IMG/VR virus record: IMGVR_UViG_2734482789_000006
Origin: a virus
Taxonomy: Duplodnaviria > Heunggongvirae > Uroviricota > Caudoviricetes
Length of the DNA: 29,156 nucleotides
Strand: one strand, 5' to 3'
Made by a program: the position numbers and the translations under genes. How positions within the stretch are numbered: position 1 is the stretch's first letter; each line of letters opens with the position of its first letter. Below are positions 1 through 29,156 of this stretch, in pieces. Under the pieces are notes generated by a model. It saw nothing but the letters and a program-made list of their open reading frames with translations, was not told where the DNA came from and did not search any database.

Positions 1-669
1 CTATATGCGTTTGATTACCACTAGATTCGACATAATCTTTGGCTCTTTCATCACTGGTACAGCCAGTTGAGGGGTAAATGATACATTGAACGGTAAGGAG
101 GGGCACCCGATGCCTTGTTCACGACTTCTTCTAATCATCCAATTCTCAGCTAGCCAACAAAAATTCCCATAAAATTTTATGTTAACACTCCGTCGCGCAG
201 TCAAGTATGGTTCAAATTCCTTAGCCAAAAAAATCACTGTAGAACCAAATACTTTGTACAGGAACATCTCATCATACAAACCATTTCTAATAGCATTTGC
301 ACATCGTTCCCATTCATTAAAAACTGTCATTAATGCTCGAGCTTCTTTCGTTTGCCTTACCTCATCACGCCCCCACATTTCAAGGGGAATTATTTTCCTA
401 AGCTTCAAAATGTTTAGCATCGTTTGCCAAGCATCTTCAACTTTATCGCTCCGCTTATATGATGATTCAAAATCAAGTGAGTTTTTTTCACGAGAGGTTT
501 GTCTCTGCTTTCCTATGCTTATAATCGCTATGGCCGCAGCAATGAGAGCAGCGATGATTGTACTATAAAATGTAGGATTGTCTTTCCAAAGGCGTGCCAA
601 CGTGCACAAGATTGTATGTAAGAAATCTTGATTCATTTCACTTAATCCATAAACAAAAGAGGTGGGCAT
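1..669 (-). CDS. Accessory membrane protein of unknown function (222 aa, one predicted transmembrane helix); candidate prophage moron, possibly superinfection exclusion or defence
   Basis: Complete ORF whose TAG stop is window bases 1-3. The protein has a hydrophobic stretch (TFYSTIIAALIAAAIAIISIG) followed by a charged soluble domain. The region is visibly AT-rich compared with the phage body. A GAGGTGGG Shine-Dalgarno-like sequence lies about 7 nt upstream of the ATG at 667-669. I recognise no family; function is inferred from position and composition only. Confidence 0.55.
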   Translation of the reverse strand: MPTSFVYGLSEMNQDFLHTILCTLARLWKDNPTFYSTIIAALIAAAIAIISIGKQRQTSREKNSLDFESSYKRSDKVEDAWQTMLNILKLRKIIPLEMWGRDEVRQTKEARALMTVFNEWERCANAIRNGLYDEMFLYKVFGSTVIFLAKEFEPYLTARRSVNIKFYGNFCWLAENWMIRRSREQGIGCPSLPFNVSFTPQLAVPVMKEPKIMSNLVVIKRI

Positions 670-681
670 ACGCCCACCTCT
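658..681 (-). promoter_or_regulatory. Perfect 10-bp stem / 4-nt loop hairpin enclosing the SD and start codon of the 1..669 gene
   Basis: Plus strand AGAGGTGGGC-ATAC-GCCCACCTCT at 658-681. On the minus-strand RNA the 5' arm is the SD-like AGAGGUGGG, the AUG sits at the loop/stem junction, and the 3' arm (CCCACCUCU) is codons 2-4. A TTTGTTTAT run follows on the minus strand, so it could also act as a terminator for upstream transcripts. Confidence 0.45.
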
Positions 682-1325
682 GAAAATCTATAAAATGAGT
701 AACTATTTACTTGGAAGTAAAGACACCCCAATCCTCTTCGCGATAGATTTTTTTCATAGTTCATACCTCTCTGGTTGTCTCATTTTTTGGCTAAAAACCT
801 TTGGACATACTTTATACACATTCGACAAAAGAACTACAAGTAAGTTCATCCGATTTCAGTTTCTTCCATCATAATCATTCAACTATAAAGCAATGTTATC
901 AACTTCTTATGTGTTACCTACATAATAGCAAAACAATAGCAAAAAGTAGAATCGTCACATGTAAAACCATGTAAACATAATATTTTCAAATGGATACATA
1001 ACACACACTGTGCTCCCTCCTCCTAAGCAGACTGAAAAAAAATGAAATTTCTTTCAATCATTTCAGTTTCTCTCCTCCGCCAAGCCGCCAGTAATGGTGT
1101 GGTCTAGCACTCAGTTTTGTAGAAAAATAAAACTGAAAAATTTTTATGATCCAAAAACCGCAGGCGGGTGCGGTGTAGCGCCGTTTTTGTCTGCGAAAGA
1201 TTTATTTTGTCGGTGCATCGCTGCGCCAGCGCAGCGCCATGCGCACGATCTTTTATATGTGTTGCATTGGGTTAATTTGTTGTTTTAAGTGCTGAGAACG
1301 CGTTCTGCTGCGTCTGAGGATGGGT

Positions 1326-1350
1326 ATAAAAAAGCCCGCATTATGCGGGC
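1326..1350 (-). terminator. Intrinsic terminator closing the tail operon
   Basis: GCCCGCA-TTA-TGCGGGC hairpin at 1334-1350, followed on the minus strand by a T run (plus-strand A run at 1328-1333), 13 nt after the TGA stop of the 1363..3066 gene. Confidence 0.6.
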
Positions 1351-1362
1351 GTGTGGTCATGG

Positions 1363-3066
1363 TCAGGCAATTATATTCTGATACTTGCTCCGGGTCTGCC
1401 CGGCTTTCGTCGCCGTCTGGGTGAACGCGTCGGCATTAGTTGGCGTCCCAACGGTGGGGTGCGAATGGCTCGCGCATTGCTGTGCCAGTTCTGCCAGTAA
1501 ATCAATGGTATCCAACATCATGGTCAGGGCGTTGATACTCTCACTGCCAATATGGACAGTTGCCCCCATGACCTGCTGACCGCCAGCGGCCACTGATTTA
1601 CGCAGTGCGGCAATTTTCTCTGTCAGGCTTTCGCCAACCTCCACGGCTACAGCACCGCCCACTTTAGTGGACTGCTGTCCTGCTATGTCCGTTTCTTCGT
1701 TTCCTTCAATACTGGCCAGCCTGTTACCTTTCACCGCCTGGCTATAATCACCGGCACTTACCTGCTGGATGGCTCCGGCCAGCAATGTGGTGGTTCCCAG
1801 TACCGTGGTTTTATCCGTGGCTTTCACCGTGGTTTCACGGCTGACCAGTTCGCGCTGTTCCGTATCGGCTTTTACGGTTCGCGCCATCGATGTTTCACTG
1901 ATGGTCTGATCGGTCTGTCTTACCCAGTCTCCTGCCTGAGTCACCCGCTGGGAAACTTCTTCCCGCTGCTGCTGCAATTGCTCACCGGGTTTAACGTCCG
2001 GCAGGCTGGTACCATCCGGCAGCGTCTGCCTGATAAAGGGTTTATCCGGTCTGCCTCCCGTGAATGCAACCTCAACCAGCGTCCCTTCTGGCGGAAACTG
2101 AAACATACCTGAATCATTCCCGGCCATTGGCACCGGCAGCTGCACCGCTGAGTAAACAGGCGTCTGATTGTCCGGGTTTCCGTCTGCGTCAAGCAGCTGA
2201 ACGTCCACGGCGTAACGTGGCCGGAAGGGATCGGCAAAATTACCGCTTTTTACCGGCTCTGAATGCGCCACGACTCTGGCCATCTTTGGCAAATGAAGCC
2301 CGGATGCCAGTTCCGGGTAATGGCTTTCAATCTGCCGTTGTGCTGGTGTTTTCTGCAAAGGTTTACCCGTTGCGCGGTTTCTCGGCGTCCATGTGATCGC
2401 CATCGTGTCATTAGTCAGGTGAACTTTAGTCACGCGTTCACCGTTCATCTCCACCCCTGGCCGCATAGTCTGGATCATTGGTAATGTCACAGAGTTACCA
2501 CCAGCAGCCCCCTGGCTGAACTCTGAAGGGATTTCTACGGAACGACCGGCAAACAATGATTTTTCTGCGCCTCCGACGTAAAGCGAACCATCAGGCAACT
2601 GGTACCAGATGTAATCCTGGATACTGAACGCCCTGCCCAGATTGTTCAGCAACTGATAGCCGGTACCGTTATGGGTAAAATGTGGGATAGGGGTATCGCT
2701 GTACTCTGCATCAGGCACACTGACCGTGATCCCGCTGTTTTCTTCCAGCCAGCTGGCAACCTCGCGTAAAGTTGGATGTTGAAACGAACATGGCCACATC
2801 CTTTCAAACACACCTACCAGCTCACGAATGAACAGACGCTGAAAACCGTTTTCAGCGGGCTGCGATCGCTCCACATACCCCGTAAACCAGCGCAAAAGCA
2901 GATCGGTATACCCCACATCCAGCCGCACCAGTTTTCCGGTGTAATCGGTTGTTGTCTCTGCGGTGATGAAGCCCCGGCCGCAGCTGTTCAGCTCCAGTAC
3001 CAGACTAGCATCCACGAGGTGAACTTCATCCGTTGAAAGGTAAAGGCGTTTTACTGGTTTCATCAT
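1363..3066 (-). CDS. Large tail-operon protein, function unassigned (possibly baseplate hub/spike-like)
   Basis: 567-aa ORF, last gene of the tail operon, start overlapping the stop of the upstream gene. The C-terminal third is rich in Thr/Gln/Gly/Ala, as in spike or fibre proteins. GC content resembles the phage body. No motif I can name with confidence. Confidence 0.45.
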   Translation of the reverse strand: MMKPVKRLYLSTDEVHLVDASLVLELNSCGRGFITAETTTDYTGKLVRLDVGYTDLLLRWFTGYVERSQPAENGFQRLFIRELVGVFERMWPCSFQHPTLREVASWLEENSGITVSVPDAEYSDTPIPHFTHNGTGYQLLNNLGRAFSIQDYIWYQLPDGSLYVGGAEKSLFAGRSVEIPSEFSQGAAGGNSVTLPMIQTMRPGVEMNGERVTKVHLTNDTMAITWTPRNRATGKPLQKTPAQRQIESHYPELASGLHLPKMARVVAHSEPVKSGNFADPFRPRYAVDVQLLDADGNPDNQTPVYSAVQLPVPMAGNDSGMFQFPPEGTLVEVAFTGGRPDKPFIRQTLPDGTSLPDVKPGEQLQQQREEVSQRVTQAGDWVRQTDQTISETSMARTVKADTEQRELVSRETTVKATDKTTVLGTTTLLAGAIQQVSAGDYSQAVKGNRLASIEGNEETDIAGQQSTKVGGAVAVEVGESLTEKIAALRKSVAAGGQQVMGATVHIGSESINALTMMLDTIDLLAELAQQCASHSHPTVGTPTNADAFTQTATKAGQTRSKYQNIIA

Positions 3067-10721: not shown

Positions 10722-10972
10722 ACTTCAATTTCCAGTTCAGGCGCATAAATATCATTTACTTTGCCAACCAGTTGAAGTGCAGCCCCCGGACGCTTTAATA
10801 CTTCTGCCAGTGCTTCTTTACTTTCCGTTGCCACAATTCGCGTCAGATAGTTATGTGCCGGGGCAACTTTATTATCCATCGCCATTTCATTAATAAATTT
10901 GTTGTAGGCAGTCTGATTTGGCTCAAAAACAATATCAACACCACAAACACACAGTTTAATTTGTTCCATCAC
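10712..10972 (-). CDS. Tail assembly chaperone (zero-frame product)
   Basis: 86-aa ORF directly upstream of the tape measure gene, ending ...EIEVKN-stop on the slippery site. Confidence 0.65.
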   Translation of the reverse strand: MMEQIKLCVCGVDIVFEPNQTAYNKFINEMAMDNKVAPAHNYLTRIVATESKEALAEVLKRPGAALQLVGKVNDIYAPELEIEVKN

Positions 10973-11255
10973 TCATACTCTCTCTTAAATTAATTTCGTC
11001 CACTAACTGATTATGACGCGCAGCACACTGCCCATAAATTTCAGGATAAATTGTCAGTAATTCTGCTGCGTCTTTTCCTGTCGTACCGTTCAGGCGCGGC
11101 AGCTGCGTGGTGCATTTAGTTTTCAGGTTTTCCTGATAACGCACGTTCGGTACCGGCTGCGGCGCTGTTGTACATGCTGACAAACTCATCAGACAGACAA
11201 CGATTGGTAAAAACGGGCTTAAGTATTTCCGTGCGTATCTCTCGCGGTGCCACAT
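10956..11255 (-). CDS. o-spanin (Rz1-like outer-membrane lipoprotein)
   Basis: Basic n-region, hydrophobic core, LSAC lipobox, then a proline-rich mature part (CTTAPQPVPNV); starts inside the Rz-like gene in another frame and runs past its end. Confidence 0.6.
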   Translation of the reverse strand: MWHRERYARKYLSPFLPIVVCLMSLSACTTAPQPVPNVRYQENLKTKCTTQLPRLNGTTGKDAAELLTIYPEIYGQCAARHNQLVDEINLRESMSDGTN

Positions 11256-11454
11256 TTTTTAACGCCTCCAGTTTATCTTCCAGCACTCTGGCCGAATCAC
11301 TGGCAATACCCTGCATTGCTTTTCGCGATTCATTACCGGCCACCTGCGCCGCTGTATTGATTGCCAGCTCTAAGCTGTCACGCCGCCAGTCAGCGGTCAG
11401 CCAGCCCCAGACAAACGCCAGCGCCACCACAACCAGCCACTGCCCGCTGCTCAT
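11116..11454 (-). CDS. i-spanin (Rz-like)
   Basis: 112 aa with an N-terminal transmembrane segment (WLVVVALAFVWGWL) and a helical periplasmic part; start overlaps the endolysin stop by 1 nt. Confidence 0.65.
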   Translation of the reverse strand: MSSGQWLVVVALAFVWGWLTADWRRDSLELAINTAAQVAGNESRKAMQGIASDSARVLEDKLEALKNVAPREIRTEILKPVFTNRCLSDEFVSMYNSAAAGTERALSGKPEN

Positions 11455-27819: not shown

Positions 27820-28860
27820 ATGAGCGTTCGTAAACTTCCTACAGGCGAATGGATCGCCGACTTCTACACCGTCAACCGCAGTAATGGCAAGAACGGGAAG
27901 CGTATACGTAAAAAATTTGCCACGAAAGGGGAAGCCCTGGCATTCGAAAACCATACACTTCAGAAAGTAGACGCAGCTCCGTGGCTGGGTGAAGGGAAGG
28001 ACAAGCGAACTTTAATAGATCTGATAACAATGTGGTATGAACGCCACGGCGTAGCTTTGAGCAATGGCGAAAAGCGTAAAGATGCTATGACCTGGGCGGC
28101 GGAATGCATGGGATTCCCGCTGGCCACAGAATTTAATGCCCAGTTGTTCACAGCCTACCGCGCTAAAAGGCTGGATGGGCATTATGCCCGCACCAACAGA
28201 GTATCTAAGGTTTCCCCGAAAACTATGAACCTTGAACATGCTTACTTTCTAGCGATGTTCAATGAACTGAAACGGATTGGTGAATGGTCAGCACCCAACC
28301 CACTGGAAAACGTCAGACAGTATCGTACTGATGAAACCGAAATGGCTTTCCTCACTACCGAAGAAATTGATCGGCTTTTACTGGAATGCAAACGAAGCAA
28401 AGTTAAGTACCTAGAATTAGTTGTAAAAATCTGCCTTGCTACCGGCGCAAGGTGGAATGAGGCGGCAACGCTGAAAAGCTCCCAGATCGCCGGGGGTAAA
28501 GTCACGTTCGTCAAAACCAAAGGGAAGCGCAACAGAACAATTCCCCTTGATGATGAACTTCTGTCCGAATTACCTGAAACAAAAGGCGCTCTGTTCCCCA
28601 AGCCCTGCTACAACGCTTTCCGCTCTGCTCTGGAACGCGCAGGCATTGAACTCCCCTCCGGCCAGCTTACCCATGTACTGCGCCATACATTTGCCAGCCA
28701 CTTTATGATGAACGGCGGAAACATTCTGGTTTTGCAAAAAATTCTCGGCCACGCTGACATAACTATGACAATGCGTTATGCCCACTTCGCCCCAAGCCAC
28801 CTTGAAGATGCTGTGCGACTTAACCCCCTAAAATGTCGCAAAAATGTCGCGACAGCTTAG
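27820..28860 (+). CDS. int: Tyrosine integrase (P2/186 family)
   Basis: 346 aa with C-terminal catalytic-box residues (HVLRHTFASH, MRYAHF); directly downstream of the repressor. Confidence 0.9.
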   Translation: MSVRKLPTGEWIADFYTVNRSNGKNGKRIRKKFATKGEALAFENHTLQKVDAAPWLGEGKDKRTLIDLITMWYERHGVALSNGEKRKDAMTWAAECMGFPLATEFNAQLFTAYRAKRLDGHYARTNRVSKVSPKTMNLEHAYFLAMFNELKRIGEWSAPNPLENVRQYRTDETEMAFLTTEEIDRLLLECKRSKVKYLELVVKICLATGARWNEAATLKSSQIAGGKVTFVKTKGKRNRTIPLDDELLSELPETKGALFPKPCYNAFRSALERAGIELPSGQLTHVLRHTFASHFMMNGGNILVLQKILGHADITMTMRYAHFAPSHLEDAVRLNPLKCRKNVATA

Positions 28861-29027
28861 AAATACTGCCGAATACTCACAGATATTAACTAACGTAACT
28901 TATTGATAACACTGTAAGTTATTGTTTTTCGTAGATAGTTGATGCTTTATAATATAGCCTGTGCTATATCTGTATGTAATGCAATCATCCCTCAAGGATC
29001 GACGGGATTAGCAAGTCAGGAGGTCTT

Positions 29028-29156
29028 ATGAATGAGTTCAAGAGGTGTATGCGCGTGTTTAGTCATTCTCCCTTTAAAGTACGGTTAATGCTGCTCTCTA
29101 TGTTGTGCGATATGGTCAACAACAAACCGCAGCAAGATAAACCTTCCGATAAATAG
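29028..29156 (+). CDS. Small ORF (42 aa) in the right flank
   Basis: ATG at 29028 with CAGGAGG SD 7 nt upstream; the stop is the last three bases of the window. Below the ORF-track size cutoff; unclear whether it is phage or host. Confidence 0.3.
   Translation: MNEFKRCMRVFSHSPFKVRLMLLSMLCDMVNNKPQQDKPSDK

Follow-up and report, generated by a model that had tools for sequence, protein, structure and literature searches.

A mini-peptide gene, a terminator and a membrane DUF4760 gene as probable defence-hotspot cargo of a P2-like prophage

What does a P2-like prophage carry where its tail operon ends, in a stretch that is visibly richer in AT than its surroundings, and what might this cargo do for its bearer? 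The question is raised by the IMG/VR virus record IMGVR_UViG_2734482789_000006, a stretch of 29,156 nucleotides that was analysed as a whole and is called the window here. Its first bases encode, on the minus strand, a membrane protein of the family DUF4760. A preliminary description, made from the letters alone, had placed one unassignable gene in an accessory island of bases 1-1362 and had suspected a moron involved in superinfection exclusion, abortive infection or another form of defence. The computational analysis reported here describes a cassette of a 16-codon gene, an intrinsic terminator and the DUF4760 gene, which very probably travels as mobile prophage cargo in a defence hotspot. 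Read as a whole, the cassette may encode a membrane effector that is gated by a peptide and serves to exclude phages or abort their infection, with a toxin-antitoxin-like organisation, a reading to which a probability of roughly 0.4 is assigned. The small upstream gene is referred to as the micro-open reading frame (micro-ORF); the parts of the cassette are as follows.

1 to 636, minus strand: DUF4760 gene, probable coding sequence of 211 aa from M12 (MNQDF...), ATG at 634-636; the longest ORF extends to 669 and gives 222 aa
648 to 681, minus strand: intrinsic terminator between the micro-ORF and DUF4760; hairpin at 658-681 with stem AGAGGTGGGC/GCCCACCTCT and loop GTAT, then a T-run
707 to 757, minus strand: micro-ORF of 16 codons, MKKIYREEDWGVFTSK and a stop codon, with the strong Shine-Dalgarno sequence GAGAGG at 766-771
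811 to 839, minus strand: candidate sigma-70 promoter read from the sequence; -35 TTGTAG at 834-839, 17-nt spacer, -10 TATAAA at 811-816

The membrane protein can be assigned to a family. It matched Pfam DUF4760 (PF15956) at E = 3.8e-25, scoring 89.1 bits where the curated gathering threshold is 25, with residues 39-177 aligned to profile positions 2-141 of 141, and phrog_2284, a group of no known function (E = 9.7e-13). The earlier remark that it could not be assigned to any family is thus superseded, the family found being an uncharacterised one. The frame 1..669 on the minus strand does exist and its stop codon coincides with the edge of the window, as had been described. Its true start is probably M12, giving a coding sequence of 1-636 and 211 instead of 222 aa, since the ATG at 667-669 falls in the loop of the terminator hairpin and is absent from close relatives, whose proteins begin at the M12 position. 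Nor is it the sole gene of the island, the micro-ORF at 707-757 being the second. An antisense ORF of 129 aa at 179..568 on the plus strand was treated as a shadow ORF, as it lies wholly within the conserved DUF4760 frame. A three-codon mini-ORF (ATG GAT TAA) is present at 634-650 on the minus strand, 5 nt before the likely DUF4760 ATG, and is kept in the nearest relatives, loci L014, L025, L033 and L035. A profile search of 1.84 billion representatives (E up to 1e-3) showed the DUF4760 family to comprise 896 clusters at 50% identity, nearly all of them stand-alone proteins of 150-300 aa.

Is the micro-ORF a genuine component of the unit? The regions upstream of DUF4760 genes were compared in 56 distinct sequences taken from genomes, IMG/VR and metagenomes. 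In 53 of the 56 loci, a short ORF was found that terminates 1-7 residues past the motif [DE][DE][DN..]W, and 52 had the micro-ORF plus, within 95 nt, a hairpin with a T-run, for which 29 different complementary stems are used. None of 2,800 shuffled controls contained both micro-ORF and terminator. The association of the micro-ORF persists down to DUF4760 protein identities of about 25-30%. The peptides, of 10-21 residues, share the C-terminal motif E-E-[D/N]-W-x and include MKTFREEDWGLS, MKNRFNEENWDV, MTKFVKIFNEENWGF, MYREEDWGDLG and MNHNFQTKNEELWD; a close variant of the motif, SEQDWGVDH, is seen in locus L186, and in Halomonadaceae the motif is doubled within one peptide, MSYHIYLDEDWGVYDEDWGVY. 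The codons of the motif occur in 18 nucleotide versions. As they vary synonymously while the peptide stays fixed, it is the peptide on which selection acts. Rfam holds no matching family, no natural fusion of the peptide motif to DUF4760 was present among 185 family proteins, and elsewhere in the prophage the motif is matched loosely at best, by stretches of CI and baseplate J that look like chance. Transcription of the unit may start at 811-839, a candidate cassette promoter of which the pattern TTGTRG-N17-TATAAA is kept in loci L014 and L010 (alignment A3); it is weak by consensus and was not listed by a consensus scan.

The sequence signals have the layout of a toxin-antitoxin operon, in which a small upstream gene with a strong Shine-Dalgarno sequence precedes the terminator and DUF4760 follows with a weak or absent one. 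They equally contain the leader ORF and the intrinsic terminator of a trp-type attenuator. A cis-acting leader peptide would work through its nascent E-E-D-W sequence, which would stall the ribosome, whether of its own accord or when prompted by a metabolite or by translation stress, control read-through of the terminator and so switch DUF4760 on; the released peptide would have no function. The order of Shine-Dalgarno sequence, short ORF, terminator and gene is classical for such a device and is found family-wide, acidic clusters and Trp occur in the arrest peptides MifM, SecM and TnaC, and base pairing of the E-E-N codons with a pyrimidine tract immediately past the stop codon is possible in several loci. 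The mutually exclusive antiterminator of a trp-type attenuator was, however, not found: among 24 leaders folded with and without the 3' arm of the terminator, neither an antiterminator, nor a pairing partner for its 5' arm, nor a structure sequestering the ribosome-binding site was conserved. The spacing also argues against attenuation. The stop codon precedes the hairpin by 8-36 nt (mostly 19-36), so that in most loci a ribosome terminating there would fall short of the hairpin, and the Trp codon precedes it by 27-57 nt, which leaves no fixed ribosome-to-hairpin geometry. Most leaders, moreover, have a single Trp codon.

A further point against attenuation is that the motif recurs in tandem in micro-ORFs of other phages that are followed by neither a terminator nor DUF4760. 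When IMG/VR was searched for short ORFs with the motif pattern, 25 short in-frame ORFs were obtained, and in 16 cases DUF4760 follows immediately. Two or three tandem copies of E-E-[D/N]-W-G-[V/F/L] are present in several small ORFs of this set or of slightly longer matches, and none of these has DUF4760 downstream. Several of these tandem-motif ORFs, of which MFEENWGFISEEDWGLDEENWGV and MVGFGEGIRSEEDWGLFGGSNECREEDWGVFEENWGV are examples, are located on 165-185 kb contigs of unrelated phages. The loci are the following.

Locus L095, 8111-8250: tandem-motif ORF
Locus L097, 2480-2740: tandem-motif ORFs
Loci L120, L127, L091, L063 and L089: tandem-motif ORFs

In L097, three tandem-motif ORFs stand in a row between structural genes and adjoin a 706-aa ORF; DUF4760 is not found nearby. 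With no conserved antiterminator, a variable spacing and tandem-motif ORFs that lack DUF4760, the evidence favours a peptide that acts in trans over an incidental leader, and an attenuator with a functionless peptide is considered rather unlikely. Much less likely still is a pair in the manner of ribosomally synthesised and post-translationally modified peptides, in which the micro-ORF would be a precursor made abundant through a leaky terminator and DUF4760 would modify or process it. The succession of peptide gene, terminator and partner gene is typical of precursor-enzyme operons, as in pqqA or the lantibiotic genes, and the peptide has an invariant Trp. DUF4760, however, is a 130-residue helical domain without an enzyme-like fold match, no exporter or further biosynthetic genes are linked to it, and the peptides, with their 10-21 residues, show no division into leader and core.

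What kind of protein would be the partner of such a peptide? Hydropathy analysis gives a single hydrophobic segment at residues 34-53 of the 222-aa numbering (KD19 maximum 2.38), followed by an all-helical domain, in agreement with the single transmembrane helix and soluble domain described before. The protein is laid out as a short N-terminal segment, one transmembrane helix, the all-helical domain (approximately residues 55-190) and a disordered tail. The count of K and R flanking the helix is 3.5 on its C-terminal side versus 0.6-1.4 on its N-terminal side; since this positive-inside count favours the C-terminal side, the helical domain was placed in the cytoplasm. DUF4760 is accordingly a predicted single-pass inner-membrane protein with a cytoplasmic C-terminal helical domain. 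AlphaFold2 models, all-helical in both cases, had a predicted local distance difference test (pLDDT) value of 78 for the full-length protein and of 90.4 for the domain on its own (residues 55-192), the latter with a predicted template modelling score of 0.82. In fold, the predicted domain is similar to the EP domain of the plant EDS1 family, with these chains and similarity scores.

8zf0_C, PAD4: 10.2, over 121 residues at 3.3 A
7xey_B, PAD4: 9.4
4nfu_A, EDS1: 8.9, over 130 of 138 residues at 3.1 A
4nfu_B, SAG101: 8.7

The resemblance of the modelled domain to the plant EP domain is one of fold and may be convergent. Invariant polar residues gather in two motifs, REKNSLDF just after the transmembrane helix and NxWERxAN, and because of this clustering the DUF4760 domain could be able to bind a ligand. 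One such ligand would be a nucleotide-derived immune signal, such as the product of a TIR or NADase, bound by the helical domain as in EDS1/PAD4, the protein then being a small-molecule receptor that serves as a membrane effector or a phage sponge. A transmembrane helix joined to a ligand-binding domain is the build of the transmembrane effectors of CBASS, Pycsar and type II Thoeris systems. This alternative is regarded as improbable, as no TIR, cyclase or other signal-producing gene was linked to DUF4760 in the contexts examined, the protein has no sequence similarity to EP domains and the family-wide micro-ORF would be left unexplained. One family member of 425 aa, P0040, is a head-to-tail duplication of the whole DUF4760 unit, with transmembrane helix and domain present twice, which suggests that DUF4760 functions as a dimer.

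The next question is where the cassette resides. Over 99% of 24.6 kb, the prophage core is 96-97% identical to the Escherichia phages ESSI2_ev015, ev040 and ev129 (Peduoviridae, Quadragintavirus), which bears out the P2-like character assigned to it earlier. By sequence, it is a P2-like Quadragintavirus prophage inserted between mntS and mntR in E. coli. The elements that delimit the cargo slot and the island are these.

670 to 1030, minus strand: 5' region of the cassette, AT-rich (34% GC); with 1-669, it makes up the stretch missing from all complete E. coli genomes
1031 to 1362, minus strand: conserved non-coding phage backbone with terminators at 1334-1350 and 1157-1174; matches 58 E. coli genomes and the ESSI2 phages
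1363 to 3066, minus strand: last core gene of the tail operon, a 567-aa baseplate/spike protein (phrog_2258 baseplate, E = 2.4e-275; baseplate protein in NC_049395), which forms the right border of the cargo slot
28948 to 28958, plus strand: attachment (att) core TATAATATAGC, found where the integrase end of the prophage meets the region between mntS and mntR; placed by aligning locus L001, the window and the empty site of K-12 with one another and by the K-12 annotation

The GC content of bases 1-1030 is 37.5%, against a mean of 51.9% (standard deviation 2.9%) for the rest of the window, where no 1030-bp stretch falls below 45.0%; such a deviating base composition is expected of a moron. By part, it amounts to 39.3% for the DUF4760 ORF, 34.1% for 670-1030 and 44.9% for 1031-1362. 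Megablast found bases 1-1030 in none of 5,426 complete E. coli genomes and bases 1031-1400 in 58 of them, and the best relative of bases 1-1030 obtained with blastn was a 149-bp stretch of 69% identity in 11 of the 5,426. The foreign segment is therefore shorter than the 1362 bases first proposed as an AT-rich accessory island: judged by the alignments it stops near 1030, and 1031-1362 are to be counted as conserved phage backbone outside the cargo because they are present in 58 E. coli genomes and in the ESSI2 phages. The tail-operon terminator that had been seen at 1326-1350 was located at 1334-1350 on the minus strand, directly after the 567-aa baseplate/spike gene, and a second terminator was found at 1157-1174. 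Both stand upstream of the cassette and separate it from the tail operon; no obvious terminator was seen after the DUF4760 stop codon.

The DNA to the left of the window was inspected by exact-protein look-up. The DUF4760 gene is followed there by a convergent 208-aa hexapeptide-repeat gene and then by mntR, ybiR, ldtB and ybiT, with a second copy of the 11-bp att core TATAATATAGC between this acetyltransferase gene and mntR; the right end of the window is mntS. An att site on the left was thus found, and an operon partner on that side was not. A partner to the left of DUF4760 was rejected, the neighbour being convergent and serine-acetyltransferase-like and followed by att and mntR; the conserved partner is the 16-codon ORF with its terminator to the right. 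In the free phage genomes of ev015, ev040 and ev129, the gene order is integrase, acetyltransferase with variable cargo, and baseplate gene. Since the att core maps outside the island and these free phages carry the slot, the island lies inside the prophage, and the possibility that it is host DNA beyond the prophage was ruled out on the same two grounds.

Between phages whose cores are 96-97% identical, the cargo of this slot differs.

This window: acetyltransferase and DUF4760 cassette
ev040: abortive-infection (Abi) family protein and acetyltransferase
ev015: acetyltransferase and three hypothetical proteins
ev129: acetyltransferase and one hypothetical protein
Other E. coli prophage at mntS/mntR: reverse transcriptase (PADLOC retron RT_VI, 5e-18) and acetyltransferase
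Other E. coli prophage at mntS/mntR: AAA ATPase (HEC-04, 3e-33) and acetyltransferase
Other E. coli prophage at mntS/mntR: PDC-S64 (5e-42)
Other E. coli prophage at mntS/mntR: PIN-domain protein
Other E. coli prophage at mntS/mntR: acetyltransferase alone
Serratia: DUF4760, then an Abi_C/AbiJ-like gene

The cargo of ev015, ev040 and ev129 stands between conserved genes and is replaced from phage to phage, in the presence/absence pattern of a moron, and the alternates match defence families: an Abi family protein, an AbiJ-like gene, a retron-type reverse transcriptase, a HEC-04-like ATPase and PDC-S64 occupy the same slot. Because near-identical phages carry other, defence-type cargo there, the slot qualifies as a defence hotspot. 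The variability that a comparison of related prophages was expected to reveal, and the foreign composition of the cargo at the distal end of the tail operon, have both withstood this scrutiny. In all contexts examined, DUF4760 relatives were prophage cargo and none had a protein neighbour that is conserved. In prophages integrated at smpB and ybjL, they fill the same slot of the Quadragintavirus type. Others stand in the classic P2 A-Q hotspot, bounded by replication gene A and the portal gene, past the tail fibres at one end of a Klebsiella lambdoid prophage, and between antiterminator Q and holin in Klebsiella lambdoid prophages. Any relative of the DUF4760 cassette was present in 11 of the 5,426 complete E. 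coli genomes, and a scan of GTDB with one genome per species gave 4 DUF4760 loci. A minor P2 hotspot between integrase and att has been described (Loubat et al. 2026, PMC13586616), and DUF4760 is entered 197 times among the contents of P2 hotspots in a supplementary table of Rousset et al. (2022, PMC9122126).

From its location, an anti-phage role of the cassette is probable. A moron with another task, such as lysogenic conversion of envelope physiology, the timing of lysis and lysogeny or host fitness, is thought unlikely. Many morons, among them bor, lom and toxin genes, are not anti-phage, no defence library recognises DUF4760, and the Klebsiella lambdoid cassette between Q and holin would be read in the late lytic programme. 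The other occupants of the slots are nevertheless overwhelmingly of the defence type, and a cargo that is rare and patchy (the 11 genomes mentioned above) and swapped between near-identical phages follows the pattern of defence genes.

How, then, might a peptide-gated effector work? The peptide and the membrane protein would act as a pair. As the micro-ORF precedes the terminator and is equipped with a strong ribosome-binding site, and that of DUF4760 is weak, the peptide would be made in large excess over DUF4760, which would be produced solely via read-through of the terminator. The acidic-Trp C-terminus of the peptide would bind the conserved polar pocket of the EP-like domain and keep DUF4760 inactive; that the peptide inhibits DUF4760 is put forward tentatively, as one possibility. 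An infecting phage that shuts off host gene expression or displaces the peptide would cause the short-lived peptide to be lost, and the freed, membrane-anchored DUF4760 would then act at the inner membrane, blocking or aborting the infection.

Several points weigh against such an effector. Peptides of 10-21 residues are unusual as stable ligands, and a cis-acting attenuator, in its textbook form, likewise has a leader ORF with a terminator behind it. A location in a hotspot is an association and not a function. DUF4760 is not among the systems reported as validated by Rousset et al. (2022, PMC9122126), and the other supplementary files of that study do not mention it. The DUF4760 protein has no match in PADLOC-DB (E up to 10) or NCBIfam. 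Foldseek gave no significant match for the DUF4760 model against the PDB. Finally, no sequence link to EP domains was found: DUF4760 is the sole Pfam match (E up to 1), and profile searches of PDB sequences returned no EDS1, PAD4 or SAG101 chain.

With these points taken into account, there is a modest chance that the cassette represents a new class of defence system. A bolder version, regarded as unlikely, holds that it belongs to an unrecognised phage-borne immunity class in which an acidic-Trp mini-peptide, E-E-[D/N]-W-G, gates a membrane effector whose sensor domain would be the prokaryotic counterpart of the EDS1/PAD4 EP domain, the tandem micro-ORFs of large lytic phages being decoys that keep such effectors off.

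Some further features of the locus were noted. The hexapeptide-repeat gene of about 208 aa, serine O-acetyltransferase-like and located in L001 at 10806-11432 (minus strand in the orientation of the locus), adjoins attP in nearly every variant of the slot. It is also present in L006, L007, L192, L195 and L009 (28696-29322), alone or beside a reverse transcriptase, an AAA ATPase, an Abi protein or DUF4760, and it was not recognised by PADLOC. Its role may be that of a conserved accessory gene, of a lysogenic-conversion gene or of a component common to several two-gene systems. Two direct repeats of 17 bp, TGTCGCAAAAATGTCGC, flank the att core, one at 28834-28850 of the window and the other at approximately 11525-11541 of L001, and one copy overlaps the 3' end of the integrase gene; judged by their position and sequence, they are plausibly arm-type integrase binding sites of attP. 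The insertion point lies in the 185-bp divergent regulatory region between mntS and mntR, at an AT-rich palindromic stretch that adjoins repeats of the ATAGC...GCTAT type (window 28860-29030; L008, which is K-12 852,990-853,190). Integration parts mntS from mntR by about 30 kb and may alter manganese regulation.

Decayed prophages keep the cargo of the slot. In L004 (8179-10669), gpR is fused to a truncated baseplate gene and the DUF4760 cassette is intact; L006 (6375-7490) retains only fragments of portal and replication genes, next to an intact cargo of reverse transcriptase and acetyltransferase. These two remnants suggest that the slot cargo outlasts the decay of the phage. In the conserved non-coding backbone, terminator-like hairpins overlap on both strands in window 1031-1230. 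The linear records of ESSI2_ev015 and ev129 begin inside this backbone, at about window position 1127-1131, and that of ev040 begins elsewhere; the genome ends (cos) might lie in 1031-1362.

The location type and the family name have been catalogued before; as far as the libraries and papers searched show, the micro-ORF with its terminator, the corrected start and the EP-like fold have not been described. A full-text search of the literature gave one incidental mention of DUF4760, a search with the motif string gave only noise, and the supplements of Vassallo 2022 do not contain DUF4760. The family belongs to the catalogued cargo of P2-type hotspots, with the 197 table mentions in Rousset et al. 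(2022, PMC9122126), yet is functionally uncharacterised. As the unit appears to consist of a mini-peptide gene, a terminator and a membrane protein, a concrete and easily testable hypothesis is now available for approximately 900 clusters (50% identity). Annotation pipelines are seen here to overlook the micro-ORF partner and to mis-call the DUF4760 start codon. Should the peptide indeed gate the effector, its size would be unusually small for an antitoxin or ligand, and the acidic-Trp micro-ORF arrays of lytic phages would suggest themselves as counter-defences. If the EP-like fold reflects shared ancestry or a shared ligand logic, a link between bacterial or phage immunity and plant immunity would be added.

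The cassette shares features with several known systems. Like other P2-like hotspot cargo (Rousset et al. 2022, PMC9122126; Loubat et al. 2026, PMC13586616), it occupies a slot that varies between core genes of near-identical phages, with Abi, reverse transcriptase, ATPase and PDC alternates, and DUF4760 itself has been catalogued in the P2 A-Q hotspot (PMC9122126). The slot of the window differs in that it lies between attP/integrase and the tail-operon end of a Quadragintavirus and not at the classic old/tin locus, and the micro-ORF of DUF4760 is not described in these studies. With the superinfection exclusion proteins HK97 gp15, T4 Imm and P22 SieA, DUF4760 has in common that it is a small protein predicted to sit in the inner membrane, and that its gene belongs to an AT-rich moron at a module boundary near tail genes; like theirs, this moron may be transcribed independently, here from the candidate promoter. 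It has no sequence or profile similarity to these proteins, its bulk is predicted to be cytoplasmic and not periplasmic, and it has a conserved partner in the micro-ORF.

From the EP domains of plant EDS1, PAD4 and SAG101, DUF4760 differs by a sequence identity of 5-11% without a Pfam or PDB sequence match, by the lack of an N-terminal lipase-like domain (a transmembrane helix and a single 130-residue domain are present instead), by its membrane anchor and by the absence of a linked TIR partner. The trpL and tnaC attenuators resemble the cassette in having a short ORF with a conserved Trp directly before a terminator and a downstream gene; in contrast to them, no antiterminator hairpin was found here, the geometry is variable, and conservation across great distances concerns the peptide sequence and not the codons alone. 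Compared with SpoIISA/SpoIISB of Bacillus and with type II toxin-antitoxin operons, the putative antitoxin is only 10-21 residues long, a terminator and not translational coupling would set the ratio, and there is no homology. What the cassette would share with these systems, in its proposed logic, is a small upstream gene whose product is in excess over a downstream membrane-anchored protein with a cytoplasmic domain.

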